IMG/VR virus record: IMGVR_UViG_3300031418_000001
Length of the DNA stretch: 64,000 bases
Source of the DNA: a virus
Lineage: Duplodnaviria; Heunggongvirae; Uroviricota; Caudoviricetes
Reading direction: 5' to 3' (one strand)
How positions within the stretch are numbered: the first letter of the stretch is position 1; the number at the start of each line of letters is the position of its first letter. This document shows, piece by piece, positions 7,902 through 53,291 of the stretch. Below the pieces are notes generated by a model, which was given only the letters and a program-made list of their open reading frames with translations, searched no databases and had not been told where the DNA came from. The position numbers and the translations under genes are program-made.

Positions 7902-9836
7902 TTATTTAGTTAGTGTAATCTTATAAAGAGTTCCATTAACATAAATCGGTAATTCATTATTTGTAATCTGTACGGTACTTAATCCAATATAACCATCTGA
8001 ACCAATTACAATACCATTTTTACCAGCACCGAGACATAATTGTGCTGGAGCCTGGATTAAACCAGTAAGAGCATTAAAATCAGTATCAGTTATTGCTGTA
8101 CCAGCAGGCATCCAACGGAAACAAATACCTGCGTTGTAACGGTCTTTTGCAGAAGTTTCAACAATAGATACACAGTTCATAGTCCAAGGTGCAAGTTTAA
8201 CATATACTGCACAGTTAGTTGTACTATCACCTTTAAAGTACATTACATCCTGAACTGCTGATGCACCTACAGTTTCCCATGTAAGTTGTACGCCGGATTT
8301 TTTCTTCTGTGCACGGATAATTGCTTCACCACCACCATAACCAGTACCACCAACTTTATGTTCAATACCAACTGAGTTAAAGCCTGAAGTACCAATAATT
8401 CTAAGATTAACAGTATCACCATCAGCAGGAACAAACAGATCACCTACTTTAACCCAGCCTGAATTAGCCTGAATATTAAAGAAACGATTCTCTGAGGTTA
8501 GATAACCATAGTTCATTGAACCAGTTGTCTTAATTCCGTGGTTCTCAATTTCAGTATTACCATCTTCCCAAACAGACAACCAAGTACTTTTAGTACTATC
8601 GTTAGTGATAATATTAGATTTACCTTGGAAGTTACGTTGAGTCATAATATAACGACAGAAGGTTAGGTTTAGTGGAGTATCACAATCTTCCATACTAAAT
8701 GCTTCAATAACCCATTGACCATTAGATAGATCGCCAGGTGTAGTACTGTGTTCAATCCAACCATTTCTGATAATAGATTGAGTACAACGTTGAAGATCAA
8801 AAATAGGAGTAGTACCAATACAACCTTGAATATTGAAGTTAGTAAGTTCAACTGCTGTTGAATGGTTCCAACCACGATAATCAGAATCAGACCATGTTGC
8901 GTGAATAACGCCACCATGACATTTAGAAGCATAGAATTGGTCAATTTTAGTATCTAAAGTATCTACTAAAGAAATACAAACACCACCCATGTTACTGAAA
9001 CGAAGATTAGATGCACGTACATATTCACCTTCAATCTCAATATTCTGGAAGAATCCTTTAGTATTAAGTTTATTACCATATTCTTTAAGATCGTTTTCAC
9101 AATTCACAAAGAAGTTACCGAATTCAGACCAACGGGCTTTGACTTTAACCATCATACCAGTACCTTGATCTGAAACTAAAGTTGTTGCAGGAAAATATCC
9201 ATAAGATACCATTGCACCAACCATTCTAAAAGTGGACACAGAAGAACCTGAAATATCTAAACCATTTAGTTTAAATGTACCAGCAGGGAACTGAATACCA
9301 ATTTTAGGATTATATTTTTTAGACCAGTTATGCATTGCAAGACATGCACTTGTGCAATCGGTCTTACCATCTGGAATAGCACCAAAATGCGTTACGTTAA
9401 TATCGTTTTGGTTTTCAATTATTTTCTTCCATCGTGCACCTTTAGGAGTTACAATAACAGTGGCGTTATCTGATGCAGTAGATCTATCAGCACTATCGTA
9501 ATAGAAATCACCACTACCAACATAAGTTCCTTTGGTATATGACATTACGTGTACTACTTTGATAGAAGAGGTAGGTTCGAATGCTTTTAGGTCAGCAATT
9601 GAATCTAAGGTGAAGGAAGCTGCTTGAGCCGAGGTTGCCATTGATACTGCTGTATCAACACTTGATTTGATTGATGAAAGGTCGGTTGCTGATACGCTAT
9701 CAGCCTTTGGAACATAATAACCATCATCTTTTTTAACAAGAACATTATCTTTCGTTGAGCTTAATTGAATATCAGGAATTATACCGCTTAGAGTCAAATT
9801 ACCGGATACTTCAAAATTACTTTTTAAATCGGCCAT
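7902..9836 (-). CDS. Tailspike / polysaccharide depolymerase (parallel beta-helix)
   Basis: N-terminal YYDSADRSTASDNATVIV...RWKK module, then INVTHFGAIPDGKTDCTSA...IQFPAGTF, typical of the entry into pectate-lyase-like tailspike beta-helices. Confidence 0.8.
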   Translation of the reverse strand: MADLKSNFEVSGNLTLSGIIPDIQLSSTKDNVLVKKDDGYYVPKADSVSATDLSSIKSSVDTAVSMATSAQAASFTLDSIADLKAFEPTSSIKVVHVMSYTKGTYVGSGDFYYDSADRSTASDNATVIVTPKGARWKKIIENQNDINVTHFGAIPDGKTDCTSACLAMHNWSKKYNPKIGIQFPAGTFKLNGLDISGSSVSTFRMVGAMVSYGYFPATTLVSDQGTGMMVKVKARWSEFGNFFVNCENDLKEYGNKLNTKGFFQNIEIEGEYVRASNLRFSNMGGVCISLVDTLDTKIDQFYASKCHGGVIHATWSDSDYRGWNHSTAVELTNFNIQGCIGTTPIFDLQRCTQSIIRNGWIEHSTTPGDLSNGQWVIEAFSMEDCDTPLNLTFCRYIMTQRNFQGKSNIITNDSTKSTWLSVWEDGNTEIENHGIKTTGSMNYGYLTSENRFFNIQANSGWVKVGDLFVPADGDTVNLRIIGTSGFNSVGIEHKVGGTGYGGGEAIIRAQKKKSGVQLTWETVGASAVQDVMYFKGDSTTNCAVYVKLAPWTMNCVSIVETSAKDRYNAGICFRWMPAGTAITDTDFNALTGLIQAPAQLCLGAGKNGIVIGSDGYIGLSTVQITNNELPIYVNGTLYKITLTK

Positions 9837-9929
9837 TATTTTTCCTTTTTCAAATTTTAAGTCGCATGGTATGTATATTACATACGATTTATTTATTTTT
9901 ATAAGGGGTATATTTAGTACTTTTAGAAC

Positions 9930-9961
9930 AAAAAAAAGCTGACTAATATAGTCAGCTTTTT
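9930..9961. terminator. Intrinsic terminator
   Basis: A8-GCTGACT-aatat-AGTCAGC-T5. Confidence 0.85.
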
Positions 9962-9976
9962 ATATATTAATTTATG

Positions 9977-10615
9977 TTAAATTGGTTCGTCATCCCATGT
10001 TGCAGCGGCCCGAGCATCTTCATAAGTACTCGCAGCATCAATAGTGGCTTTTAATGTCCATGCTTTCTGATAAATTTCATTACTGAACTGGAATAAAGCA
10101 ATCGCAAATTCCTTAAATTTATCAGCATCCATTGGAATATTTTGGTCATCTTCTGAACGCCAGATAAAACCTTCTGGTAGTACTGCTGGATTAGATAAAA
10201 TCGCAGCCTGTGCACCAATAATATTCATTCTTGAATCACGATCAGTTAAGTATCTAACATCTTCAAATACAAAACCACCATAGTACTTATCATTACGTTT
10301 AGCATCCACACGATTTTTTAAATCAGTTTTGATTTCATCAAGTGGTTGTCTTTCATAAACGTATGTATTGGTTACTACTGCGGTATCTTCATCATAAGCA
10401 GTTTGCTTTTCTTTGAAGACCATGTATTCACCCTGATCAACATATACATCTTCTTGTGTCCAGAAACCTTCTGCTTTACGAGTATCTAAATCAAGGATAG
10501 TGATATTACCATAGGTAATACCACTGTTTCCACGTTGATTGATTGGACTCGTAATGACACGTACTATTCTGAAAGAACCATCGTCTTCCTTAACAACATA
10601 CAAATACAGCATCAT
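9977..10615 (-). CDS. Tail fibre assembly chaperone (DUF4376-like)
   Basis: KRNDKYYGGFVF...WRSEDDQNIPMD...LKATIDAA pattern, directly downstream of the long fibre gene. Confidence 0.75.
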   Translation of the reverse strand: MMLYLYVVKEDDGSFRIVRVITSPINQRGNSGITYGNITILDLDTRKAEGFWTQEDVYVDQGEYMVFKEKQTAYDEDTAVVTNTYVYERQPLDEIKTDLKNRVDAKRNDKYYGGFVFEDVRYLTDRDSRMNIIGAQAAILSNPAVLPEGFIWRSEDDQNIPMDADKFKEFAIALFQFSNEIYQKAWTLKATIDAASTYEDARAAATWDDEPI

Positions 10616-10629
10616 TATTTCTCCTAAAA

Positions 10630-13600
10630 TTATGGTCTTTGTGCAATAAACACGTCATACTGAGTACCAACACCGCAATATACAACTTGGCAGATACTTA
10701 CAGCGTTTGGATCAGTATTAACTTGACCGCCGATTACTGAATAGTTAGAACCCCAAGTTACTGCATGACCGCCAGTAGCGTCCTGAGTAATATAGATGAA
10801 CCAAGAACCAGCACCATTAACGTTAGCGATAGGGTTAATGGAAGTATTCGCAGATAGAGTAACGTTATAAACGTTTGAAGTGCCATCTGGAGTCCATGTT
10901 GCCGCACTAACAGTTTCAGTAGCATGTTGTTTAACGAAATAAGTACCAGTTTTGAAAGAGGTAGTAGTTAGTGTTGATAGATCAACATCTAAAGTACCAT
11001 TTACTTTCAAGTTGTTTACAGTTACTGCACCAGCAAAAGTACTTGTAGCGTTTACAGTCAGGGTATCAGCAGCAGCATCACCAATTACAGTGTTACCATT
11101 TGCAGATAGAGTTCCAGTTACTGTTGCACTGTTTAGTGTTGCAAGACCAGAAGTACTTAGAGTACTTAGAGTAGTTGCACCAGTTACACCTAAAGTAGTT
11201 GTAACAGAAGCACTGTTCAGTGTTGCAAGACCAGAAGTACCTAATGTACCAGTGATTGTAGTATTACCAGAAGCCACTGTTGCAAGAGTAGTTGCACCAT
11301 TTACTTTCAGTGTAGTACCAGCAGTAATACCAGCAGATGTGGTCACTGATTTAAAAGTAACATCAGAGTTTGTCTGGTTTAATGTACCGTTAATCACACC
11401 AGTTACTGTGAAGTCACCAGTAGTTACTACATTACCATTAACCTGAAGGTTATTGTTTGTCGAGCCTGAAGCACCGATAATTGCAGTTGCAGCAGTTAGT
11501 GAAGTACCAGCAGTTAGTGAACCAGCAGCAGTAATATTACCTGAAGCAGTTACGTTACGTGGAGAAATATCACGTGAAGTAAGGTCAATCGCTGCGTTAA
11601 TCACACCAGTTACATCTAAGTTACCGTTTACAACTGAGTCACCAAATACGTTCAGAACATAGTTAGTATTTTCAGTACCAGTACCAATTTTAATGGTATC
11701 TGCGTTTGCTTTCTTAACAGTGGTGGTTGTTCCTGATACAGTTAGATTTCCAGCAAGGGTAGATGCACCAGTTACTGATAAAGTACTACCTACTGTTACC
11801 GCACCTAAAGTACTTACGCCACTAACACCTAAAGTACCAGTGATAGAATGGTTGCCAGAGTTAACAGCAGCTAATGTTGTTACACCAGTTACACCAAAGG
11901 TTCCGGCTACGGTAGATTTACCACCAACAATAACATCATCAGTAGTAGTGATTGAAGCAACACTCAACGCAGCACCAGACAGATCTAAACCGCCAGTAGG
12001 TGTTAGTGTTCCAGTTACAGTTACATTATTTGCAAATGTAGTATTACCAGTAATTGAAGGAACTGCTAAAGTAGTTGCAGTTACACCAGCAAGAGTAGTT
12101 GCACCAGTTACACCTAAAGTACCACCTACAGTTGTATTACCAGAGATTTTAGGAGCACCAGTGATAACGCCAGTAGTAAGAACTAAGTTACCGCCTACAG
12201 TAGCATTTCCAGTACTTTCTAAACTCTGTACACTTAGATCAGTATTTGATAGGTCAAATGTACCATTAACAACTAAATCACCACCAACTGTTGTATTACC
12301 AGTAGTAGTCAATGTTGTAGAACTAATATCAGCACCAGACAGATCTAAACCACCAGCAGGAATAAATGTACCAGTTACTGTAACGTCATTTGCAAAGGTA
12401 GTATTACCAGTAATTGAAGGAACTGCTAATGTAGTTGCAGCAACGTCACCTAATGTAGCTTTACCAGTTACTCCTAATGTACCACCTACAGTTGAACTTC
12501 CTAACGTAGTTGTACCAGTTACCTCCAAAGTACCAGAAGCAGTAATATTAGCTGCTTTTAAAGTACCAGTTACGTTGCCAGTAATTGCAACATTACCACC
12601 AACAGACAGGTTAGTACCAACAGTCACAGCAGCAGTTGTTGTAAGTGATTTAGAACTAATATCAACAGCACTTAAATCAATACCAGCAGCAGTGAGAACA
12701 CCGTTAATTGTCAAGTCACCAGTTAAAGTAGTATCACCAGTTACAGAAGCATTACCTTTTACAGTTAGATTAGTACCTACAGTTGTTTCACCAGTACTTT
12801 CTAAAGTAACACCTTTAACAGATGTTGTACTTAGTACCGAATTTGGTTCAATATCTAAACCATCAACATTAGCTGCAACAGTAACACCAGTAGTAGTTCC
12901 GGTAACAACGAGGTCTTTGATTGTAGCAGTGCCAGATACTGAAGAATCGACCGAAGCAACAGTGCCATCAACATTAATCGAACCAGTAGACAGATTGCCA
13001 GCATTTGCACCAGTTAATTTACCGCCGACTGAAGCTGCTCCAGAAACTGTTAGAGTAGCGGCAGTAACACCATCAGTAACAACAACTGAATTTGGTTCAA
13101 TATCTAAACCATCAACGTTAGCTGCAACAGTAACGCCAGTAGTAGTTCCGGTAACAACAAGATCTTTGATTGTAGCAGTACCAGTTACTGAAGAATCAAC
13201 TGAAGTAACTGTACCATCACTATTAATTGAACCAGTAGACAGAGTGCCAGCACTTGCACCAGTTAATTTACCACCTACTGAACCTGCACCAGATACTGTT
13301 AGTGTAGTAGCACTAACACCATCAGTAACAACAACTGATTTAGGTTTAATGTCTAAACCATCAACATTAGCTGCAACAGTAACACCAGTAGTAGTTCCGG
13401 TAACAACAAGATCTTTTACAGTTACAGTTTGACCGTCTACTGTTACATTACCATCAAAGGTACTTGCACCAGAAACATTAACTGAACCAGCAGATACAAG
13501 ACCAGTACTTGTAACTGAACCAGCAGATAGAAGACCAGTACTTGTAACCGTTGCACCAGATAGACCCGCTGTTGCAGTTACAGAGTTAGGATTTAAATCT

Positions 13601-15042
13601 TGACCAGTAACATCAAGTGTTAGACCACTAACTTGACCAGTGACTTCAAGATCGTTTAGTACGGTTTTACCAGCAACTGTTAATTGTGGTCGTGTAGTGC
13701 CAGTGGTACTGTTACCAACAATATCAAGATAATCAATACTTGCTTTGCCTTTTGCGGTTAGACCGTTATTAGCGAAGGTCACATCACCAACAGTAATACG
13801 ATCAATATCTGCTACTTGGCCTTGGAATTCATGAGAACTAACTTTATAAGGCTCAATAGAAGATTTAATATCTGTAGGACGAGAAGCATCATTATAACTG
13901 AACTGTACAATACCAGCAGAACCAGCAACAGTGTAAGTGCCAAAAGTAGCAGCACTTGATGCACCAGTTACATTACCTGATACGTTAAGACTCGTTAGAG
14001 TAGTTGCACCAGTAGCAGTAATACCATTAAATGAACTTGCACCACTAACTGTTAGGGTTTCAAAGTTACCTTGATCGAGACTAAAATCACCACTTAGAAC
14101 ACCAGTAACCTCTAAATCACCAACAGTAGTTTTTCCGGTGAACTTTGAAGTACCAGCAACAGTGAATTGAGGGCGTGTAGTGCCAGTGGTACTGTTACCA
14201 ACAATATCAAGGTAATCAATACTTGCTTTACCTTTAGCAATTAAGCCATTATCACTATAAGTAACATCACCAAGAACAATATGACCGATAGTACCTTTTT
14301 GACCTTGGAATTCATTAGAACTAATTTTATAAGGTTCAATTGCAGATTTAATATCAGTAGGACGTGCTGGATCATTATAAGTAAACTGAACAACACCAGT
14401 TTGACCAGCAACATTATAGGTTGTGAATGTAGCAGAATAACCAGTACCAGCAACGTTACCTGATAGGTTTACGTTTTTAAGTGTACTTGTACCATTTACA
14501 GTTAGACTATTGAATACACCGTTGTCCATAGTAAAAGTACCACCGAGTGTACCATTAATGACAACATCATTAAGAGTAGCAGTTCCGGTACTCGTTAGAT
14601 CAACAGTATCCACTGAGTCAGATGCATTAACAGTTGTCGCCGTTACAGTATCAATATTACCGACCGGAGAAGTTAATGAAGTTGTTGCACTTAGGGTATC
14701 AGTAGTGATAGCACCTGAGTTATTAATTTTTGCACTTGTAATGGTTCCTGTACTTTCTAAATCAGCAGTCGTAACTTTTGCAGTTCCGGTTACATTACGA
14801 AATGTTGCAGAACTGTTTGCACCACCAGTGATGTTACCATTTATACTCATGTTACCACTTGCAGAGATATTAGCAAGATTTGCGGTTCCAGTTACAGTGA
14901 TTTGGGTAAATGTAGCGTCGGCAAAACTTACCGTACCATTGACTGTTAGATTTTTGGCAATAACTGCATTACCACTTACTAACAAATCTTTGTCAATTGT
15001 ACCATTACCAGCTACTTTAAGATCCGTATTAAAAGGATACAT
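10630..15042 (-). CDS. Long tail fibre protein (1470 aa, T/V/G-rich repeats)
   Basis: Extended L(T/N)V(T/S)G beta repeats, internal duplications and an adjacent chaperone gene. Confidence 0.85.
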   Translation of the reverse strand: MYPFNTDLKVAGNGTIDKDLLVSGNAVIAKNLTVNGTVSFADATFTQITVTGTANLANISASGNMSINGNITGGANSSATFRNVTGTAKVTTADLESTGTITSAKINNSGAITTDTLSATTSLTSPVGNIDTVTATTVNASDSVDTVDLTSTGTATLNDVVINGTLGGTFTMDNGVFNSLTVNGTSTLKNVNLSGNVAGTGYSATFTTYNVAGQTGVVQFTYNDPARPTDIKSAIEPYKISSNEFQGQKGTIGHIVLGDVTYSDNGLIAKGKASIDYLDIVGNSTTGTTRPQFTVAGTSKFTGKTTVGDLEVTGVLSGDFSLDQGNFETLTVSGASSFNGITATGATTLTSLNVSGNVTGASSAATFGTYTVAGSAGIVQFSYNDASRPTDIKSSIEPYKVSSHEFQGQVADIDRITVGDVTFANNGLTAKGKASIDYLDIVGNSTTGTTRPQLTVAGKTVLNDLEVTGQVSGLTLDVTGQDLNPNSVTATAGLSGATVTSTGLLSAGSVTSTGLVSAGSVNVSGASTFDGNVTVDGQTVTVKDLVVTGTTTGVTVAANVDGLDIKPKSVVVTDGVSATTLTVSGAGSVGGKLTGASAGTLSTGSINSDGTVTSVDSSVTGTATIKDLVVTGTTTGVTVAANVDGLDIEPNSVVVTDGVTAATLTVSGAASVGGKLTGANAGNLSTGSINVDGTVASVDSSVSGTATIKDLVVTGTTTGVTVAANVDGLDIEPNSVLSTTSVKGVTLESTGETTVGTNLTVKGNASVTGDTTLTGDLTINGVLTAAGIDLSAVDISSKSLTTTAAVTVGTNLSVGGNVAITGNVTGTLKAANITASGTLEVTGTTTLGSSTVGGTLGVTGKATLGDVAATTLAVPSITGNTTFANDVTVTGTFIPAGGLDLSGADISSTTLTTTGNTTVGGDLVVNGTFDLSNTDLSVQSLESTGNATVGGNLVLTTGVITGAPKISGNTTVGGTLGVTGATTLAGVTATTLAVPSITGNTTFANNVTVTGTLTPTGGLDLSGAALSVASITTTDDVIVGGKSTVAGTFGVTGVTTLAAVNSGNHSITGTLGVSGVSTLGAVTVGSTLSVTGASTLAGNLTVSGTTTTVKKANADTIKIGTGTENTNYVLNVFGDSVVNGNLDVTGVINAAIDLTSRDISPRNVTASGNITAAGSLTAGTSLTAATAIIGASGSTNNNLQVNGNVVTTGDFTVTGVINGTLNQTNSDVTFKSVTTSAGITAGTTLKVNGATTLATVASGNTTITGTLGTSGLATLNSASVTTTLGVTGATTLSTLSTSGLATLNSATVTGTLSANGNTVIGDAAADTLTVNATSTFAGAVTVNNLKVNGTLDVDLSTLTTTSFKTGTYFVKQHATETVSAATWTPDGTSNVYNVTLSANTSINPIANVNGAGSWFIYITQDATGGHAVTWGSNYSVIGGQVNTDPNAVSICQVVYCGVGTQYDVFIAQRP
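11971..12490. repeat. Internal duplication in the fibre gene, period 360 bp (120 aa)
   Basis: agcaccagacagatctaaac occurs at 11971 and 12331, with matching downstream sequence. Confidence 0.8.
12780..13430. repeat. Three tandem modules in the fibre gene, period 249 bp (83 aa)
   Basis: tctaaaccatcaac(a/g)ttagctgcaacagtaac(a/g)ccagtagtagttccggtaacaac recurs near 12854, 13103 and 13352. Confidence 0.9.
13680..14440. repeat. Internal duplication in the fibre gene, period 483 bp (161 aa)
   Basis: cgtgtagtgccagtggtactgttaccaacaatatcaag occurs at 13691 and 14174. Confidence 0.85.
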
Positions 15043-15153
15043 TCTTTCCCTCCGTTGGAAACAATATTAATTTAATGTATTTATCTATGATGTTATTTTA
15101 TATTAATACTTAAAAGAAAAATCTCAGATTTAACAACCTGAGATTATTATCTA

Positions 15154-16026
15154 TTACTTACCTGAAATAACTGCTTTACCACTGAAAAGAATATTACTAT
15201 TCAAAATAATATTTCCACTTGAATCAATTGTAGTATCGAGTGAAACTACTTCAAATGGTGCGGTACTGGCAGCAGCATCCACTGTATTTTGATAAACAGT
15301 AATGAATAGAGGGCCAGTAGCTTGACCATGTTCAGTAGCTGGAATAGATAACTGGTATGCACCATTAACTGAAGTCCAATCTGCTTTATCAATTGTTTTA
15401 GGATATGGGGTACTCAATGTAGTTGCTCCTATTAATAGTAGTTTATAATTTGATGTAGGTAATGCATTACTTGTAATAGAAATATTACCTTCATTACTAA
15501 CAACAACCTGTGCCATTGCAGTAGCACCAGTATCATCTTGTAATTGCACAATGATATTGGAACCACGTTCATGAACTGTCTCTGCTAAAGAGTACTGATA
15601 TACTCCTGAATTACTTACCCAATCTGAAGGGGTAATTACATGTTCAGTTACATAGCTTGAATCTGATTCTGGCTTAACAGATAAGGGTTTCCATACTCCA
15701 ACATCTTTAAAAAAGATGTTTAAAATATTAGTGCTGTCCAACTTAAAGTACACATTATTATCTTCGCCTAAACTCTGTGCTGGGTCATCGGCACCATGCA
15801 GAATACCTGCACTACCGCCGCCACCTCCACCATGTGAATTGAAATAAGCTAAGTTAACCGCATGTGTATCGTCAGTAGGATTTGCCACACTGATTGGAAT
15901 TAAGTCATCTTGTTGGTAATTCATAACTTTAAGTGAACCATTTTCATAAACTAATGCTCCACCATTTTTACCAACAACGAAGGATTTTTTCATTGTTCCT
16001 TCTAAATTTGAAAAAATTGCCATCAA
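15154..16026 (-). CDS. Virion structural protein (fibre/adaptor-associated)
   Basis: Contains two copies of a 'DW...YQ...H' module that also occurs at the C-terminus of 5908-7779. Late-promoter hexamer upstream. Confidence 0.65.
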   Translation of the reverse strand: MMAIFSNLEGTMKKSFVVGKNGGALVYENGSLKVMNYQQDDLIPISVANPTDDTHAVNLAYFNSHGGGGGGSAGILHGADDPAQSLGEDNNVYFKLDSTNILNIFFKDVGVWKPLSVKPESDSSYVTEHVITPSDWVSNSGVYQYSLAETVHERGSNIIVQLQDDTGATAMAQVVVSNEGNISITSNALPTSNYKLLLIGATTLSTPYPKTIDKADWTSVNGAYQLSIPATEHGQATGPLFITVYQNTVDAAASTAPFEVVSLDTTIDSSGNIILNSNILFSGKAVISGK

Positions 16027-16101
16027 TACATTCTCCGATTGGTTTATTTGATGTAGTATTTATGTATGAGTAAATATAGGATATTGAATAGGAGAACAAA
16101 A

Positions 16102-16686
16102 ATGGTTTCAATGAAAGATCTTGCACAAAAAGTACAAAGTGTGTTAATCGAAGGTAATGTTGGTACTTTTTATCACGGCAGTCCTCATAAAATCACCTCA
16201 TTTGTGAATGATTTCATGGAAGAGGGTAATCATATGTATGGGCCTGGAATTTATTTCACATCAAATCCGCAGGAAGCATCGACTTATGCTGAAAAAGATG
16301 GATATATCTATGAAGTAACCTTAAACTTCAGAAAAGAACTTGCTGCTAAAGGAAAAGTTAACCTAAATGTATGTAAAAAGTTGATGTTGAATTCACCAGA
16401 TGAAGAAGCATGGACTAATTGGGCTGAAGACAAAAATACTGCCATCAATGATGCATTACGGACTACTGCTGAATCATCAGATAATATGCTTGAAGCACTT
16501 ATGATTGTTTGGGGTGACTGGTATCGTGGTCAACATATAGCTTTTGTTAATCAACTTATTAAACTTGGCTATGATGGTACTTTATATCCTAATATTAACA
16601 ATTCTGGTAATACATTTGCGGTTGTTTATAACCCTCAATCAATTAATTTAGTTCGTATAATTCCAGCAAGTGAATTTTACAAATAA
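16102..16686 (+). CDS. ADP-ribosyltransferase-fold protein (ART-PolyVal-like)
   Basis: FYHGS...GPGIYFT...ASTYA...GYIYEVTL...GYDG. The start was moved to ATG16102, after AGGAGA. Confidence 0.65.
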   Translation: MVSMKDLAQKVQSVLIEGNVGTFYHGSPHKITSFVNDFMEEGNHMYGPGIYFTSNPQEASTYAEKDGYIYEVTLNFRKELAAKGKVNLNVCKKLMLNSPDEEAWTNWAEDKNTAINDALRTTAESSDNMLEALMIVWGDWYRGQHIAFVNQLIKLGYDGTLYPNINNSGNTFAVVYNPQSINLVRIIPASEFYK

Positions 16687-16712
16687 AAAAGGAGCCTGTT
16701 GGCTCCTTTTTT
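16685..16712. terminator. Bidirectional terminator
   Basis: A6-GGAGCC-tgtt-GGCTCC-T6. Confidence 0.9.
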
Positions 16713-16713
16713 C

Positions 16714-17784
16714 TTAAATCGGAATACTACTTGTTGGTAATTGCTTAGCTACTGTGATTTTAACTTCTACTATACCAGAGTCACTGTTTAGCGGAGCATA
16801 ATCAAATACAGCACTAACTATTTCATCTTTAACGCTTGGGTTATGATTAATTTCATTAACGATGTATCTTTTCTGAACGTTAATATCAAAATATTCTTCT
16901 GGTGCAATTATAACAGAACCAGCATCATCCTGAATAGTACCACCAAAACGAATTTCCATTTCAACTACGTTAGTATTAAGTTTAGTTGTTACATTAGCAT
17001 CAATATTTGTCACTACATAACCAGCAGGAACGGTTCCAAGTACTAAAAGGGTGTTAGCCATACTGAAATCAATTGTATTTGAAATAATATACAATGCATC
17101 AGCACTACTTCCATCATCACCCTTGACACCCTGTTTACCTGTCCATTGATACGGTTTACTCCAGTGTAAAACACCATTACCATCAACATATACCTGATAA
17201 ATCTCACCAGTATCTTCTTTTAAGAAAGTATATGTATCCCATAAAGTACTTATATCCGGTAAAACATCACCACTGTCATTAATAACAAAGTTACCAGCAT
17301 CACCTTTAATACCTTTCCATCTGTAAGGAGCACTCCAAACTAATTGAGGGGTTTTCTGGTAAATGTTACCTTCATCTTCTTTATAGAAGGTGTAACCAAT
17401 GCGAAGGTCTGCTAAATCGGGGAGGGTATCACCCTGTGCATCAATAAGGAATGGATCTCCTTTATCTCCTTTACCGTACTCTACACTAACCCAAGTACTC
17501 GGTGTAACACCAGGAAGAGAGGTTTTAAAATATAATGTTACTTTGCCATTTGCATAGCTTTGATATACGAATCCCTGCACTTCATCAACAAATGAAGTAC
17601 CATCAGGAATTAAATCACCCTGTAAATCAGGTTTGAAGTTTTTTCCATCTGAACCAACAACATGCCCGAGTACTTCTGAAGTACTATCAGTATAAAATAC
17701 AACTAAATCACCATCATCATTGATAGTAGCAGATTTAATACTTTTATTAGATGAGCAGTTTTGATTATTGAAAGAAATTGCCAT
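16714..17784 (-). CDS. Virion/fibre protein with short collagen-like GxKGD linkers and three repeated modules
   Basis: GKGDKGD, GIKGDAG and GVKGDDG separate repeated GDxLPD...YTF.KED.G.IYQ...WS.PY.W units. RBS AGGAGA before the start at 17784. Confidence 0.7.
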   Translation of the reverse strand: MAISFNNQNCSSNKSIKSATINDDGDLVVFYTDSTSEVLGHVVGSDGKNFKPDLQGDLIPDGTSFVDEVQGFVYQSYANGKVTLYFKTSLPGVTPSTWVSVEYGKGDKGDPFLIDAQGDTLPDLADLRIGYTFYKEDEGNIYQKTPQLVWSAPYRWKGIKGDAGNFVINDSGDVLPDISTLWDTYTFLKEDTGEIYQVYVDGNGVLHWSKPYQWTGKQGVKGDDGSSADALYIISNTIDFSMANTLLVLGTVPAGYVVTNIDANVTTKLNTNVVEMEIRFGGTIQDDAGSVIIAPEEYFDINVQKRYIVNEINHNPSVKDEIVSAVFDYAPLNSDSGIVEVKITVAKQLPTSSIPI

Positions 17785-17883
17785 GTTAGAATCTCCTATA
17801 CAATTTATGGTATTTATCCCCATTACACATTGTGCGTCTTGCTTAAATAAATAATATAAAGTTCAATAGAAGGGAACTATAAA

Positions 17884-18381
17884 ATGGGATTAAGATCTAA
17901 AAACTTTATGTTCGAACGCTTAACGAAAGATGGCGAACAAGAAATGTATCTGGAAAGTGATACTTGGTATCCAACTAATCCAGATTATAAATGGAATGAA
18001 ACTTCCGTTAAATTACCAGCAGGTGGTTATTATGGTAGTACTACTGGACTACATACTTTTAGTTTTACTCTTAGAAATTTTGTGGGTCGTATATCTGTAC
18101 AGGCGACGTTAGCAAATGATCCAACAGAAGAAGATTGGTTCAATATTAATTTCTGTGATAAGGGTGAATACATTGAGATTACACCAGAGCAAATTTTCGA
18201 TATGTATAATGGCGAAAGAGTCATATATGCATATGGAAGTACTGGCACTTTTTCGGAAACGGTAGTGGGTAACTTTACTTATCTACGTATTGTTATTTCC
18301 AGAGATTATATTAGTACAGATCCTACAGATTACCAAAAAAATAACGTTGGTAAACTTGAAGAAGTATTAATCAATTATTAA
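17884..18381 (+). CDS. Conserved hypothetical, probably virion protein
   Basis: ORF with RBS and TAAATA at 17844. Confidence 0.7.
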   Translation: MGLRSKNFMFERLTKDGEQEMYLESDTWYPTNPDYKWNETSVKLPAGGYYGSTTGLHTFSFTLRNFVGRISVQATLANDPTEEDWFNINFCDKGEYIEITPEQIFDMYNGERVIYAYGSTGTFSETVVGNFTYLRIVISRDYISTDPTDYQKNNVGKLEEVLINY

Positions 18382-48348: not shown

Positions 48349-50487
48349 ATGTTATTATTCAAAAAAATTAGTATGAGAAACTTTTTCTCTTTTGGTAACG
48401 TACCACAGGTGGTAGATCTTGATTCAAATACTCTTACTTTAATCCTTGGACAAAATAATGATGCTCTCAGCACTGAAGGTGCTGAGGGTGCTCGTAATGG
48501 CGTAGGCAAGTCTGCAATCATTCAGGGGCTTGCCTTTGGTCTTTATGGTAAAAGTATTGATAACAGTATTAAAATACCAAACTTGGTGAACAAAATCAAT
48601 GAGAAGCAATGTGAAGTAACTATCGAATTCGAAAAAGATGGTATGTCATATCGAGTAGAACGTGGACGTTCTCCTACTTTCTTCAACTTCTACAAAAATG
48701 ATTCAAAAGTAGAATCAGATGAAAGCCGTGGAGAAATGAAAGATACCCAAGAAGAACTTTTAGAAGTACTTGGTATTTCCCAAACACTATTTGAACACAT
48801 TGTTATTCTTAATACTAACGTACAACCTTTCTTGGCGTTAAGTACTTCAAAACAACGTGACATGATTGAAGAACTACTTGGTATCACTCAGCTTACTGAG
48901 AAAGCAAGTCTCCTTAAAGATATGTATAAGGAATCAAAAAGACTTGCTGACCAAGAGAAGTTTAAATTGGAAACAATTACAGAAAGTAATAAAAAGATTG
49001 AACGTAGTATTTCTTCACTTGAAGAACAAGCAGCAATGTTTGAAATGAAAAAAGAAGAAAAGATTCGTGAGTTACAAAGTAACCTTGAACAATTGGGTGT
49101 AGTTGATTTCAATGTTTTAATGAAAGAAGCAACCCGTCAAGGTATGATTCGTGATGATAACGATAAGATCGTTAAATTAAATGCATCATTAAGAGATTCA
49201 GAAGCTAAGCGTGATAAATTTAATGAAAACATTCAACTACAACGTTCATCTATTATCAAGCAAATTGAAGTACTGAAAGAACTTGATATTTCTTCTGAGT
49301 TGGCATTACATGAAGATGTTCAGGCTTGGGAACAGTTGAGTACTATTCTATCTGAAATGAAGAATAGCTATGCACTTATCAGTTCTAAGATTCAAAACCA
49401 TGAACGTCTACTAAAAAATTCTAAAGATAAACTTCTTAAAGAAGAACAATTAGTACTTGATTTAGAAAAATCACAATGTCCTATGTGTAAACAACATTTA
49501 GACCACACTGATTCTCATAAATCACTACTTGATAAATGTAATTCTAACATTGCCAGTATACAAGATGAAATAAGTACTTATGAAAGTGAGATTGATACAC
49601 TAAAATCATCACTACCTGAACTATTTGAAATGCCAGTTAAGCCTGTTACATTTTACAGTACATTATCTGAAGCTAAGTTACATGAACATAAGTTAGAATC
49701 ACTTGAAAAAGCACTACAAGATGAACAATCTAACCCATATGAATCTGATATTGCTGAAATTAAGGAACAATTAAGTACTTTAGTACATATTGATATTCCT
49801 GATAATGAATATATGGATATTGGTACTATTAGTATGCTCCAATTTCAGAAAAAGAGTATTGAGAAGTCATTAAAAGAAGCACTTGAATCAGAAAATACGT
49901 ATTTCAAGCAAATTGAAACATTAAAGAACGATTCTTTGCAGATTGTTGATTGGGATGAATATAATAGATTGGTTACGTTATCAGAACACCAAGATTTCCT
50001 GTTAAAACTACTAACGAACAAAGATTCTCATGTTCGTAAACGTATTATTGAGCAGAACATTCAGTTCCTTAACAAAAGACTATCTTTTTATATTGAGAAA
50101 AGCGGTTCTAATCATTTAGTTGAGTTCATGAATGATTTAAGTGTTGATATTTCAATGAACGGTAAGTCATATGACTACTCACAGTTATCAAGAGGTGAGA
50201 GAAACCGTGTTATTATTTCACTGAACCTTGCATTCCGTGATACATACGAATCACTATATCAGAACATCAATATTCTTTTCGTTGATGAGATAATTGATAA
50301 TGGTCTTGACAGTTCTGGTGTATATAATGCTTGGAGTATCCTACAAGATTTAAGTGCAACACGCAATAAGAACATTTACGTGGTATCACATCGTGAAGAA
50401 CTATTGAGTAAAGCATCTAATATTCTGAAGGTAGTAAAAGAAGATTCATTCAGTACTATTGAGTACTGTACATCTGACGACTTTTAA
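48349..50487 (+). CDS. gp46: Recombination ATPase subunit (Rad50/SbcC-like)
   Basis: NFFSFGN, Walker A NGVGKS, zinc hook CPMC, signature LSRGE, Walker B LFVDE and VSH. Confidence 0.93.
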   Translation: MLLFKKISMRNFFSFGNVPQVVDLDSNTLTLILGQNNDALSTEGAEGARNGVGKSAIIQGLAFGLYGKSIDNSIKIPNLVNKINEKQCEVTIEFEKDGMSYRVERGRSPTFFNFYKNDSKVESDESRGEMKDTQEELLEVLGISQTLFEHIVILNTNVQPFLALSTSKQRDMIEELLGITQLTEKASLLKDMYKESKRLADQEKFKLETITESNKKIERSISSLEEQAAMFEMKKEEKIRELQSNLEQLGVVDFNVLMKEATRQGMIRDDNDKIVKLNASLRDSEAKRDKFNENIQLQRSSIIKQIEVLKELDISSELALHEDVQAWEQLSTILSEMKNSYALISSKIQNHERLLKNSKDKLLKEEQLVLDLEKSQCPMCKQHLDHTDSHKSLLDKCNSNIASIQDEISTYESEIDTLKSSLPELFEMPVKPVTFYSTLSEAKLHEHKLESLEKALQDEQSNPYESDIAEIKEQLSTLVHIDIPDNEYMDIGTISMLQFQKKSIEKSLKEALESENTYFKQIETLKNDSLQIVDWDEYNRLVTLSEHQDFLLKLLTNKDSHVRKRIIEQNIQFLNKRLSFYIEKSGSNHLVEFMNDLSVDISMNGKSYDYSQLSRGERNRVIISLNLAFRDTYESLYQNINILFVDEIIDNGLDSSGVYNAWSILQDLSATRNKNIYVVSHREELLSKASNILKVVKEDSFSTIEYCTSDDF

Positions 50488-50489
50488 AC

Positions 50490-50517
50490 AAAAAGGGAGC
50501 CTTAGCTCCCTTTTTTT
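50490..50517. terminator. Bidirectional terminator
   Basis: A5-GGGAGC-ctta-GCTCCC-T7. Confidence 0.88.
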
Positions 50518-50984
50518 ATATCTAACATATTAAGTGCACCAGTTTTTATCAACTTACGGGCTTGATTTGCACGTTTCTTAACGTTCGTTTCAGGTTGAAC
50601 CCCTAAGTTAATAAGAATTTCACGTTGCTTGTCAGCAGGCAACGCTTTGAACTTATTCACATCAACTGATAAGGCAGTATGATGGATTTTGTTTGAAGAA
50701 TAATCTTGCTCTAAATAATCCGCAAGATTTCTAAGGACTTCTGGTAAAGGTTTATCAGTAAGATGTTTCATATATCTGTTGAAACTATTCTGTACTTTAC
50801 CTTCAAACGAGTTACATTCACGTTGAAGTACTTGACGGCATCTTTGTTCACCGAAATGTTGGTGGTCAAGTACTGGATCATGAATCTTTTCTTTTGTGAT
50901 TGGGTCAATGTTATTTTGTTTCTTCAATAATTCATTACGATAAGTACCAGCATCCTTACTATCTTTTAATCTGTTGTTTTCCAT
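50502..50984 (-). CDS. gp49: Recombination endonuclease VII (Holliday junction resolvase)
   Basis: DPIT...PVLDHQH...CRQVLQRECNSFEG...LRNLADYL. Confidence 0.85.
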   Translation of the reverse strand: MENNRLKDSKDAGTYRNELLKKQNNIDPITKEKIHDPVLDHQHFGEQRCRQVLQRECNSFEGKVQNSFNRYMKHLTDKPLPEVLRNLADYLEQDYSSNKIHHTALSVDVNKFKALPADKQREILINLGVQPETNVKKRANQARKLIKTGALNMLDIKKGS

Positions 50985-51028
50985 ATTTAAGTACTCATAT
51001 AATTACATATTAAGTATTTACAAAAAAC

Positions 51029-51056
51029 TGAAACAGATCCTGTTATGTGCTATACT
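51029..51056 (+). promoter_or_regulatory. Putative promoter TGAAAC-N16-TATACT driving the non-coding region
   Basis: Motif match, back-to-back with minus-strand TAAATA at 51015-51020. Confidence 0.7.
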
Positions 51057-51062
51057 ATATGT

Positions 51063-51550
51063 ATAGAAAACAATCCTGACTGGCAGTTTAACGACTGACA
51101 AATAGAACCTGATCCTATCGAAAACGTAGATGGCAGATGAGTTGTCCAGACAGAACGATGTGCAAAAGAAACCCGTGTTAATCCCGAACCGCTATACAAA
51201 ACAGGTTGGACATACGGCAATGTGGCACAATAAAGAACCGGATAATATCCCGTAGGTTCCTCGATAGACATATAAGGCCAAACCTTACCAAATGATATAA
51301 GGGAGTCTATTACTCAATAGATGAATTTGGCGACACTTTTTACAATATAATTGTGTCCAGAATTCATGAGTACTTAGACGCTTATAAGAGTTATTCATAC
51401 AGCTTTTATAAGTAGAGTAGTGATTAGCTACGACCGTTGCAAAAGAATGGCGATAGGAAGAAACAGGGCAACCCGCTTCCGCTTAGGTACAATATAGTTG
51501 TATCCAAAATTCGCTGTATGAAATGTACGACGCACCAACGTCAGGTTTTT
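51063..51550 (+). ncRNA. Candidate large structured non-coding RNA (~490 nt), family unknown
   Basis: No credible plus-strand ORF, and GC is higher than in other intergenic DNA. It has its own promoter, a 5'/3' closing helix, many nested stems with GNRA loops, and a U-tract at the end. Confidence 0.65.
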
Positions 51551-51553
51551 TCT

Positions 51554-51571
51554 TCCCTCCCTGCGGGGGGA
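51554..51571 (+). terminator. GC-rich hairpin downstream of the candidate ncRNA
   Basis: TCCCTCC-ctgc-GGGGGGA followed by TTTAAAT. Confidence 0.5.
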
Positions 51572-51681
51572 TTTAAATGTACTCAAGAAACCACGTCAAG
51601 TAATGATTGTTAAACTTATAAAGTAATTAAAAATAATCTGAATTGATATGAGTACTGAATGAACGTAGTGAATTCATACGA

Positions 51682-52215
51682 ATGAAATTCATGGCTTGCT
51701 TGAAAAGCAAGACAGCTAACGAGTTGATAGAAATGTTTGATAAAATCTTTAATCATCTAAAAGTTGATCTGAAAGACAGAGAATCTTTTAAAACTAATGA
51801 AATCCCTTTTAGATGTAATATTTTAACTGGTGAAAACATTACTGTTAAAATTTCATACCAAGAAACAGTAATAGATTCTAATGACATTGTTAAGTTGTTA
51901 GGTCATACCTTTCAAGATTTTTCGTTGAATATTACGTTTGATGATAAAAAACATGATAAGCAACACTATCATGATGTTTTATTCTTAGCTGGTGTTCCCT
52001 TTTTTGTTGGTGCTTATAGCAGTGACCATAAAGGAAAAGAATATCAGTTTGAGTACATGATCAATAATCCTACCGTATTCAATTATAATGATAGCCATGA
52101 TATTGATTTTGATGATAAGGCCGTACACTTCAACCTAAATGTGTCTGGTGATACCGAGTTATACCACGAATTCAAATCCATGATAAGTTACCTTACTAAA
52201 CATTTTGGATTATGA
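51682..52215 (+). CDS. Hypothetical protein
   Basis: 177-aa ORF; start uncertain because no clear RBS is present. Confidence 0.65.
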   Translation: MKFMACLKSKTANELIEMFDKIFNHLKVDLKDRESFKTNEIPFRCNILTGENITVKISYQETVIDSNDIVKLLGHTFQDFSLNITFDDKKHDKQHYHDVLFLAGVPFFVGAYSSDHKGKEYQFEYMINNPTVFNYNDSHDIDFDDKAVHFNLNVSGDTELYHEFKSMISYLTKHFGL

Positions 52216-52250: not shown

Positions 52251-52425
52251 ATTGCTTCTTCTCTTTTTGTACCTTTCTGTTCCATGTAGTGATTAACGTA
52301 TCCCTTTTAGTTACGGGCATATTCAGTAGTAACTCATAGGTTACATTTGGAATATTAATCACTATCTCCCATAACCCTCTATCAATTTCATCCTGATTAA
52401 GCGTTAAATCAGCCAAGTACTTCAT
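52249..52425 (-). CDS. Small gp51-like baseplate/tail assembly chaperone (58 aa; absent from the ORF track)
   Basis: MKYLADLTLNQDEIDRGLWEIVINIPNVTYELLLNMPVTKRDTLITTWNRKVQKEKKQ. It overlaps the upstream stop (TAATG), and LLNMP..RD resembles the gp51-family ENM.PWERD. Confidence 0.7.
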   Translation of the reverse strand: MKYLADLTLNQDEIDRGLWEIVINIPNVTYELLLNMPVTKRDTLITTWNRKVQKEKKQ

Positions 52426-53291
52426 TACTTCTTCGTAGTCTTCCGAGAGAAGCCTTGCACGAAAAAACTGCTTGGATCGAACTGTAGGTTTTCAAGAGTC
52501 CATTCATGATCACACTCTGAACATTGAACATCCATATTATGTTCAACACCGGACATATTCATTACATATGCTGCTTCTGTGATTTCATCAATTGTATGTT
52601 TATCCAGATTTTCAGCCCATTCTCTGATATGCTTTCTATCTTCTACAATTACATCATCTGGTAATTCAATACGTGATACAAATTCAGTTAACATATCGAA
52701 TTGTAATTTAGCCATGTTGTCAAAAATAGTACTGATAAGTTTTACTTTTTCTTCATCTGTATCAATTTTATCTGCATGTTGCATCATTTTGTTCTGCTGG
52801 AATGCAGCAATACTAAACTCAGTATGTTGTTTCCAAGTATGAGGTTTTAGGAAGATAACAAGTCCATTCTCAAGAATCACTTTTGGTTCTTCTTTGATTA
52901 AATTAGCTGTTTCAAACAGAAAGTTTACATCCCTTTCAAACATACCGTACTTTTCACACTTAGGACATTTAGTTTCAATTTCATAAGATACTTCTTTCGT
53001 TGCTAACTTAATACCAAGTAATAGAAGCTCAACATCTGGAAGATATAGTTCATCTGCATTCAGTATATCTGGTACACAGTTTTCAATTACATTCTTTACT
53101 GCTTTTCCGTTCATTAATGCATCAGGGTTATTGAATAGTAATTCATCACGAGCGGAACGAGCACAAATACCTAATTCATCATCTGGATTCTTTAGTACTC
53201 CAGACTTATAAGGAATTTTATTATTTGTTACTAATCTGGTGAATTTAATTGGGTTCTTTGTATATTGTGACAAAGGGTTCATGTTACTCAT
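52425..53291 (-). CDS. Baseplate hub assembly protein / tail assembly chaperone (gp26-like)
   Basis: SARDELLFNNPDALMNG...LPDVELLLLGIKLAT...CPKC...CSEC...SSFF pattern. Confidence 0.75.
   Translation of the reverse strand: MSNMNPLSQYTKNPIKFTRLVTNNKIPYKSGVLKNPDDELGICARSARDELLFNNPDALMNGKAVKNVIENCVPDILNADELYLPDVELLLLGIKLATKEVSYEIETKCPKCEKYGMFERDVNFLFETANLIKEEPKVILENGLVIFLKPHTWKQHTEFSIAAFQQNKMMQHADKIDTDEEKVKLISTIFDNMAKLQFDMLTEFVSRIELPDDVIVEDRKHIREWAENLDKHTIDEITEAAYVMNMSGVEHNMDVQCSECDHEWTLENLQFDPSSFFVQGFSRKTTKK

Follow-up and report, generated by a model that had tools for sequence, protein, structure and literature searches.

The DNA analysed here, called the window in what follows, is a stretch of 64,000 nucleotides (nt) from the IMG/VR virus record IMGVR_UViG_3300031418_000001 (Caudoviricetes), and is part of the genome of a T4-related jumbo phage. 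Next to the gene for endonuclease VII (endoVII), the window contains what is very probably a real, new and independently transcribed gene for a structured RNA, whose predicted architecture is described below. It is a free-standing gene for a non-coding RNA (ncRNA), encoded on the + strand, with a length of ~0.5 kb up to a U-tract near position 51551, or ~0.65 kb if a conserved 3' extension is included. The gene and its neighbours, among which is a 177-amino-acid (aa) open reading frame (ORF), are arranged as follows:

48349-50487, + strand: homologue of gp46, Rad50-like
50502-50984, - strand: endoVII (phrog_423, E = 8e-35)
50985-51681: gap of 697 nt between endoVII and the 177-aa ORF
51028-51056, + strand: promoter CTGAAA-N17-TATACT with a TG-extended -10 element, found by consensus scan
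51108-51602, + strand: core of the RNA family (nhmmer, model positions 1-489, E = 2.7e-120), with a leader that begins near 51063 and a conserved 3' extension that reaches ~51716
51682-52215, + strand: 177-aa ORF
52425-53291, - strand: baseplate hub gene

The gap is the largest ORF-free stretch of the window, the runner-up being 329 nt long. Its GC content is 36.9% (40.4% for 51029-51600), compared with 32-35% for the remaining gaps and 35.6% for the window overall. A first-pass annotation of the window had singled out this region as the only long non-coding stretch, richer in GC than the other spacers, and these figures bear it out. The predicted fold of the + strand between 51063 and 51552 is better than that of dinucleotide-shuffled controls (z = -3.76, equalled by 0 of 100 shuffles), so that the comparison of folding energies suggested in the same annotation came out in favour of an RNA; the - strand of the same segment (z = -1.53) is no better than its shuffles.

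The stretch is present in 62 phage records (blastn), at 3-5 places in each, and almost always without any annotation underneath. All 62 records are Rak2-like jumbo phages of ~320-385 kb, whose hosts belong to Escherichia, Klebsiella, Salmonella, Serratia, Erwinia, Cronobacter, Yersinia, Pectobacterium and Xanthomonas. Forty-nine further loci came from a pattern search of IMG/VR, every one on contigs of the Rak2-like group, and the nhmmer profile covers each locus end to end. A second pattern scan gave 17 extra loci on small contigs, none of which is a member by nhmmer, and these were discarded as chance matches. Five full-length copies, all on the + strand, are found in each of Serratia phage BF and Xanthomonas phage XaC1. 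The alignment used for the structural analysis (A1, made with MAFFT) contains 47 distinct copies, with pairwise identities of 54-97% (median 65%).

Across these 47 copies, 17 helices comprising 70 base pairs are canonical in 97.7% of cases, as opposed to 74.6 +/- 0.5% (maximum 76.4%) in 500 shuffles of the 3' partners. Double-change cells, i.e. those with compensatory changes, amount to 739 against a shuffle mean of 197, and RNAalifold independently predicted 58 pairs, 39 of them with compensatory changes. Covariation in homologues, on which the first-pass annotation had made its proposal depend, is thus strong. In addition, G-U cells are far more numerous than A-C cells (187 vs 20); therefore, the + strand is the RNA, and it is on the + strand RNA that selection acts. 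The earlier argument that the G-U pairs fit an RNA better than a DNA cruciform gains the same support. Against this background, it is hardly credible that there is no RNA gene at all, and that the copies are DNA repeats scattered over the genome (sites of recombination or protein binding) or harbour short coding ORFs. Such an explanation could appeal to the fact that the transcript is a predicted one, that the gap contains ORFs of 41-73 aa and that the copies are, after all, dispersed repeats. However, the 739 compensatory cells keep Watson-Crick or G-U pairing despite sequence change, the asymmetry between G-U and A-C is strand-specific and is not produced by DNA-level or coding constraint, and the insertions and deletions of whole hairpin modules would break any reading frame.

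The result is a large RNA with a compact fold of at least 13 helices (P) and four pseudoknots (PK), whose elements upstream of the 3' end are listed here with the proportion of paired cells and the number of double-change cells:

51075-51083, + strand: 5' strand of PK1 (CCUGACUGG; leader motif AAyyCUGAuUGr), pairing with the P2 loop at 51147-51154
51084-51097, + strand: leader hairpin P0 (CAGU-UUAACG-ACUG), read from the sequences and unscored, of variable size
51109-51136, + strand: P1 hairpin with the conserved loop GAAAAYGUA, segments 92-95% paired, with 6, 16 and 28 double-change cells
51109-51156, + strand: P1-P2 region, with the invariant AGAUGAG besides the two helices
51141-43/51154-56, + strand: P2 stem, 100% paired, 23 double-change cells
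51159-63/51225-29, + strand: P3, 100% paired, 43 double-change cells
51173-76/51214-17, + strand: P4, 100% paired, with compensatory changes in two copies
51220-22/51269-71, + strand: PK2 (AUG/CAU), J4/3 with J5/6, 100% paired, 7 double-change cells
51235-39/51255-59, + strand: P5 (GAACC/GGTTC), between the PK2 strands, 97% paired, 101 double-change cells
51273-87, + strand: P6 (UAAGG/CCUUA), covarying by eye (AAGG/CCUU, AUGG/CCAU, GAG/CUC)
after P6 and up to 51304, + strand: invariant ACC...UAAGGGAG
51305-51379, + strand: P7, a long hairpin of variable length, base GUCU/AGAC 95% paired, 54 double-change cells
51381-51412, + strand: P8 hairpin, stems 94% and 98% paired, 76 and 57 double-change cells
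51395-400/51516-21, + strand: PK3 (UCAUAC/GUAUGA), P8 loop with J10/13, 100% paired, 91 double-change cells
51417-20/51428-31, + strand: P9, first helix of the 3' domain (51417-51515)
51436-40/51468-72, + strand: PK4 (GUUGC/GCAAC), GUUGC with the P11 loop, 100% paired, 22 double-change cells
51449-53/51511-15, + strand: P10, 99% paired, 72 double-change cells
51456-60/51476-80, + strand: P11 (GGAAG/CTTCC), 100% paired, 55 double-change cells
51483-85/51505-07, + strand: P12, 96% paired, 46 double-change cells, with an optional module at 51486-504

Among the pseudoknots, PK1 was tested without an alignment because leader lengths vary. The best duplex between each copy's own P2 loop and its own leader falls at the same relative place in 47/47 copies, with a mean free energy of -8.9 kcal/mol, compared with -5.6 kcal/mol for non-cognate loops, and the cognate loop ranked among the top 3 of 20 in 37 copies. 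Compensatory variants of PK1 are many, for example CUGAAUGG/UCAUUCAG, CUGUUUGG/UCAAACAG and CAACGG/CCGUUG. The other three pseudoknots vary in a similar manner: PK2 occurs as AUA/UAU, AUC/GAU and ACA/UGU, PK3 covaries at all 6 positions, and in PK4 C-G, U-A and A-U pairs are all seen.

These data change the fold originally drawn for the window in its long-range parts, while most of its local hairpins survive. Compensatory changes in the 47 homologues uphold four of the hairpins that had been read from the window, namely GAACC/GGTTC (P5), 51305-51379 (P7, at its base), 51381-412 (P8) and GGAAG/CTTCC (P11). The fifth, TAAGG/CCTTA (P6), stands insofar as it covaries by eye; gaps in its alignment columns stand in the way of a reliable count (68% paired). 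The closed global fold, with a stem joining CCTGAC (51075-80) to GTCAGG (51540-45) at the two ends, had to be abandoned in favour of the four pseudoknots, as the 5' element pairs with the P2 loop (51147-54) in PK1. The proposed stem CTATCGA/TCGATAG is 80% paired because many copies keep CCUAUCG, and it has 1 double-change cell vs 44 for P1, to which its 5' arm belongs: variants of this arm are compensated inside P1, and not by the invariant GAUAG. The pairing CCGTT/AATGG and the GG-GCAA-CC tetraloop (81% paired, 0 double changes) clash with PK4, and GGTACAA/TTGTATC falls in the optional inserted module of 25 nt that many copies lack.

Variation in size is concentrated in a few places. A hairpin is present at the place of P0 in every copy, with differing sequence; P3 and P4 (51159-51229) surround a variable insert; the upper part of P7 is missing in many copies, and its tip is an optional module (UACAAUAUA..GUCC). 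A module of ~25 nt (UACAAUAUAG..GUCC) is seen at the tips of both P7 (51341-65) and P12 (51488-512), the two being 88% alike, and it is present or absent at the two places independently between copies, as a small insertable hairpin or a binding site might be. There are also long invariant single-stranded blocks: GAAAAYGUA, AGAUGAG, GCAAAAGAAAC, GAUAGACAUAUAAGG, UAAGGGAG, CGACCGUUG and GAAAC..AACCCGC. Three motifs suspected by eye were dropped. AGAUGAG is no hammerhead core, as it has no U-turn and part of it is paired in P1; the AGUA/GAA resembling a sarcin-ricin motif is the covarying P2 stem; and the match of UAAGGGAG to an anti-Shine-Dalgarno sequence is imperfect.

Transcription is inferred to start near 51063, downstream of the promoter listed above. 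The motif tGAAAC/GGGACA-N15-17-TGnTATAAT lies upstream of nearly all 47 copies, and the claim that the RNA has its own promoter is therefore sustained by a promoter class kept across the family. BF has 38 promoters of the class aTGrAAC-N15-16-TGnTATAAT, without exception on the + strand, five of which head the RNA copies. The TG-extended -10 element points to recognition by the host sigma-70 polymerase, and hence to an early expression. In many copies (e.g. L002 3945-3985, L007, L011, L038 and L057), a stable hairpin followed by a U-run is found right after the predicted start, and could be either a 5' stabiliser or a very early attenuator. Among the public runs listed for the window stretch there is no RNA run, all of them being plant or phyllosphere DNA metagenomes. 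Contigs of a wastewater metatranscriptome over a 121Q-type locus span the RNA gene together with its coding flanks, although such contigs give no ends, strand or level.

The 3' part of the unit contains the following elements:

51529-51551, + strand: P13 hairpin (GACG/CGUC), from local folds of all copies
51532-44, + strand: repeat 1, CUAYCANCGUCAR, comprising the P13 loop and 3' strand
51546-51, + strand: U-tract directly after P13, the window having P13 + AGG-U6
~51556-70, + strand: conserved C-rich/G-rich hairpin, 95% paired, followed by a AUGAAAAUG-like spacer
51587-99, + strand: repeat 2, CAAAYCNCGUCAR, a second copy of the P13 3' strand
51603-51716, + strand: conserved 3' extension, with the same motif series and covarying hairpin stems in phage and bacterial copies
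51639-46, + strand: extension motif UGAAUUGA
51656-76, + strand: extension hairpin with the loop GAACGUAGUGA (family loop AACGWAGUGA)
51693-51713, + strand: extension hairpin, preceded by the motif ACGAAUGAAAUUC (family form ACGAAAAUUCUUGAC-hairpin-GGCAAU)

The extent first assigned to the RNA, from ~51063 to ~51550, consequently agrees with the predicted start and is too short at the 3' end, the core alone reaching 51602. The 3' extension may be part of one transcript with the core. By eye, TTGAC...GGCAAT in the extension looked like a sigma-70 promoter; it was rejected, as there is no consistent -10 element and the intervening hairpin covaries.

Three paralogue groups have a typical terminator hairpin with U6-8 after P13; the P13 and U-tract of the window were not called by the terminator scan. 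In one paralogue group, the terminator hairpin shares GUCAG with the 3' strand of P13 (GUCAG/CUGAC), and the two pairings therefore exclude each other. Repeats 1 and 2 covary by identity, not by complementarity. Their Y position agrees in 47/47 copies (U/U in 24, C/C in 23), with at least five independent switches, and three further pairs of positions in the two repeats act in the same way; even rare changes of the core are common to both repeats, namely UGUCA in L036 and L037 and CGACA in L068. For the 5' strand of P13, the two repeats are equally good partners (mean -4.0 kcal/mol with repeat 1 vs -3.8 kcal/mol with repeat 2), and it is repeat 2 that takes part in the minimum-energy fold of several copies. 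The test of cognate vs non-cognate duplexes was weak for repeat 2 and did not discriminate, because the CGUCA core is invariant, and a search for a purine partner of the Y positions, covering the core, the 3' extension and a possible GRU motif upstream of P13, gave none. The simplest reading that these data suggest is a bistable terminal helix formed from two co-evolving repeats.

Elements of this kind are also what would be expected if the RNA were a cis-acting leader controlling transcription, similar to a riboswitch or to put and EAR, in which the core decides between a stop after P13 and read-through. The terminator-like hairpin with U6-8 within the conserved unit of three paralogue groups, its overlap with P13 in one of them, and the identity covariation of the two repeats, as for alternative partners of one attenuator strand, all agree with this proposal, as do the orientation of all copies along the surrounding gene arrays and the presence, in certain paralogues, of a conserved hairpin directly against the start codon of the following gene. 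Nevertheless, we regard a cis-acting leader as rather unlikely. The genes downstream of the paralogues are unrelated to one another, so that no conserved regulated gene exists; in the D paralogue group, which includes the BF copy between endoVII and the hub gene, a terminator and convergent genes lie downstream of the RNA, and in the bacterial islands described below the next gene is a convergent CI repressor, which speaks for the independence of the RNA. Moreover, 450-650 nt with four pseudoknots is far above any known attenuator, and 33 further BF promoters of the same class are without the element.

The same comparison of paralogues disposes of the suggestion that the 177-aa orphan ORF acts together with the RNA. 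The ORF matches no PHROG, bears no relation to the one found in syntenic position in XaC1, and has no counterpart at the syntenic site of BF, where there is no ORF; with unrelated genes following the other paralogues, it was ruled out as a conserved partner. The ORF may be lineage-specific, its true start may lie further downstream, or it may be no gene. Its first ~35 nt are shared with the conserved RNA extension.

Rak2-like jumbo phages maintain the family in about five copies, which have diverged, share one strand and occupy fixed positions. The window, XaC1 and BF all have a copy between endoVII and the baseplate hub gene, and this copy is thus old and fixed. However, the window copy is nearest to all five XaC1 copies (72-79% identity), and not to the syntenic BF copy. 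Likewise, the five XaC1 paralogues (L001, L005, L007, L009 and L011) and the window copy resemble one another more than they resemble the positional orthologue of BF. This indicates that paralogues have been homogenised in that lineage, and suggests gene conversion among the paralogues of the XaC1/window lineage.

Outside phages, full-length copies occur on seven genome contigs (one from Buttiauxella, two from Serratia, one from Enterobacter, two from Enterobacteriaceae and one, of 2.8 kb, binned as Clostridium), and two complete E. coli chromosomes have one copy each. The bacterial copies are located in integrative elements, adjoining a tyrosine integrase or a large serine recombinase, and downstream of them there are often genes for a convergent CI-type repressor, a Cro-like HTH_35 protein and a protein of 257-286 aa. 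Copies of different islands resemble different phage paralogues, implying more than one transfer of the RNA, each time as a self-contained unit. The island of E. coli LR-29-1 (L072, locus 7956-18300), next to ffs, is ~10 kb long and comprises an integrase split by IS3, the RNA and uncharacterised proteins; it includes the PADLOC candidate defence system PDC-M45 (dual-OB and DUF488 proteins, plus a DUF4326 protein). No homologue of the island proteins was found beside any phage RNA copy. The 257-286-aa protein (F0, with a C-terminal match to phrog_20749) was considered as a shared partner and rejected, having no homologue in the Rak2-like phages. The gene right after the fourth RNA copy of BF (BF 259455-260288) encodes an ADP-ribosylglycohydrolase-like product; a link with the ADP-ribosylglycohydrolase at an island locus was rejected, since the latter is a chromosomal housekeeping gene outside the island.

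The layout of the copies brings in a further explanation, namely that the transcript serves to start replication in the manner of ColE1 RNA II or the T4 R-loops, from about five origins per genome, and that the islands captured it for helper-phage replication. The five same-strand BF copies are 52-84 kb apart, which is evener than chance (P ~0.005 for a smallest gap of at least 52 kb between five random points on a circle); they keep their places from genus to genus; past the folded domain come a G6 run and a C-rich hairpin, followed by AT-rich conserved DNA; and small integrative islands have captured the unit. On the other hand, cumulative GC skew in BF mirrors gene orientation only, with no inflection at any copy, an intrinsic terminator separates the folded domain from the supposed hybrid zone, and no initiator or iteron system was identified. 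In addition, selection on RNA pairing, G-U pairs included, extends over 450 nt, which R-loop origins do not need. An origin transcript is accordingly quite improbable.

Lastly, the RNA could be a giant counterpart of the Y RNAs, bound by a Ro60-like ring protein and working with a repair cluster of RNA ligase and 2H phosphodiesterase. The Ro60-like phrog_850 was found in 4/5 of the RNA-bearing phages tested (BF, XaC1, GAP32 and one IMG/VR genome), at the following positions in the three named phages:

BF 101477-102991: Ro60-like phrog_850
XaC1 128421-129968: Ro60-like phrog_850
GAP32 105937-107439: Ro60-like phrog_850

It was not found in the 121Q record, which does have the RNA, or in the island ORFs scanned, and is a candidate partner rather than an obligate one. 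In no case does phrog_850 adjoin an RNA copy (in BF and XaC1 it is 8-11 kb off), in size the RNA exceeds known Y RNAs several-fold, and a Ro-binding helix was not identified; such a partnership is improbable.

We therefore return to a free-standing RNA gene, for which the following picture can be proposed. The RNA would be made early, by the host RNA polymerase, from the phage promoter class with the TG-extended -10 element. A terminator after P13 would be leaky, giving a short and a long isoform, and the terminal helix would use P13 with either repeat 1 or repeat 2, yielding a bistable 3' end. As an abundant early RNA it would then act in trans, and not as the leader of one gene; on the features of the family set out above, we consider such a trans-acting role probable. 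Within it, a part in host takeover or counter-defence, played by an RNA or ribonucleoprotein (RNP) as scaffold, decoy or sponge, is likelier than a ribozyme, and a ribozyme likelier than a partner of the Ro60-like protein; with low confidence in each case, the first is no better than a tentative choice, and the second is unlikely.

Several points weigh against this picture. The transcript and both its ends are inferred, for this phage and for its relatives alike. The terminator formed by P13 and the U-tract is weak in the window, so that the RNA may run into the 177-aa ORF. The internal terminator, the duplicated 3' strand and the hairpins that abut start codons fit a cis-regulatory device as well, and the even spacing of the five copies hints at a role tied to genome position. 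Finally, nothing found points to a specific molecular function or partner.

The boldest version of this picture is a new class of RNA, quadruply pseudoknotted and with a bistable 3' helix, which would be made in bulk from about five gene copies as infection begins and would act alone or as an RNP. As a whole, we regard it as doubtful. The RNA could, for example, be a decoy or sponge that disarms a host defence based on RNA targeting or nucleotide signalling, or else a ribozyme of a new kind; its capture by defence-type islands of the host would have served as a counter-measure or to exploit a helper phage; and it would be a weapon, at the RNA level, on both sides of the phage-host conflict. 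More generally, large structured RNAs whose job is unknown are rare, and time and again they have been the starting point of new biochemistry. That the copies have fixed positions, were homogenised within genomes of one lineage and were repeatedly captured by islands argues for an important role in giant-phage infection. The family is also tractable: the constraint is strong and the natural variation is enough to define the fold, cultured phages of E. coli, Klebsiella, Serratia, Erwinia, Cronobacter and Xanthomonas contain several copies per genome, and a copy is present in a complete E. coli chromosome beside a candidate defence system. The co-evolving terminal repeats offer a concrete, mutable handle on a conformational switch.

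As regards known families, no Rfam 15 model matched anywhere in the window at the gathering score, and at E <= 10 the segment 50900-51750 gave only two chance-level matches to long non-coding RNAs (E 2.9 and 3.5). The families covered include GOLLD, ROOL, OLE, raiA, RNase P, group I/II introns, hammerhead, 6S and HEARO. ARAGORN found 0 transfer-messenger RNA (tmRNA) or tRNA genes in the window. The first-pass annotation had reported no hallmarks of tmRNA, RNase P or group I/II introns, and had proposed a structured RNA of jumbo phages not described before; the searches agree with the former, and the latter is now backed by the 17 covarying helices and by the fact that no description of the family was found in the literature searched, so that its novelty stands. 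The tmRNA is similar in size class and likewise has four pseudoknots, but the present RNA is devoid of a tRNA-like end, a CCA tail and a tag reading frame.

Processive antitermination and attenuation RNAs comprise riboswitch expression platforms, HK022 put and EAR. With these, the present RNA shares its place just past a promoter, an internal terminator and two co-evolving copies of a strand that suggest mutually exclusive helices; however, it is 5-10 times larger, has no conserved downstream gene and is often followed by a convergent gene or a terminator. T4-like genomes contain several dispersed R-loop origin loci. Both they and ColE1 RNA II are similar to the present RNA in having a promoter-driven transcript with a G-rich element downstream, while the lack of a skew signal, the terminator before the G-run and the very heavy structural constraint set it apart. 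The similarity to Y RNA and YrlA, with their partner Ro60 (Rsr), is that most of the RNA-carrying phages encode a Ro60-like protein, whereas the present RNA is much larger and occurs without the protein in 121Q and in the islands.

Among RNAs of other jumbo phages, ncRNA002 of PA5oct, a distantly related phage, is a 451-nt RNA known from RNA-seq (PMC7318152). It resembles the present RNA as a highly expressed, ORF-free transcript of ~450 nt from a phage said to be related to the Rak2-like phages. When ncRNA001 and ncRNA002 were tried as homologues, nhmmer at maximum sensitivity over 16 kb gave none, and ncRNA002 is at most an analogue.

The closest systems are ROOL and GOLLD, the large 'ornate' RNAs of phages and prophages studied by cryo-electron microscopy (PMC12286853). 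Their defining finding is the formation of oligomers. The present RNA has no sequence or structure match to their Rfam models, and differs from them in that about five copies per genome are found at fixed syntenic positions in lytic jumbo phages. On the other hand, it is like them in its length of several hundred nt, in its many helices and pseudoknots, in being carried by phages and mobile elements, and in belonging to free-standing genes whose function is unknown. A large, conserved, multi-helix ncRNA borne by phages and mobile elements, as which ROOL and GOLLD are recognised, is also what the present family is.

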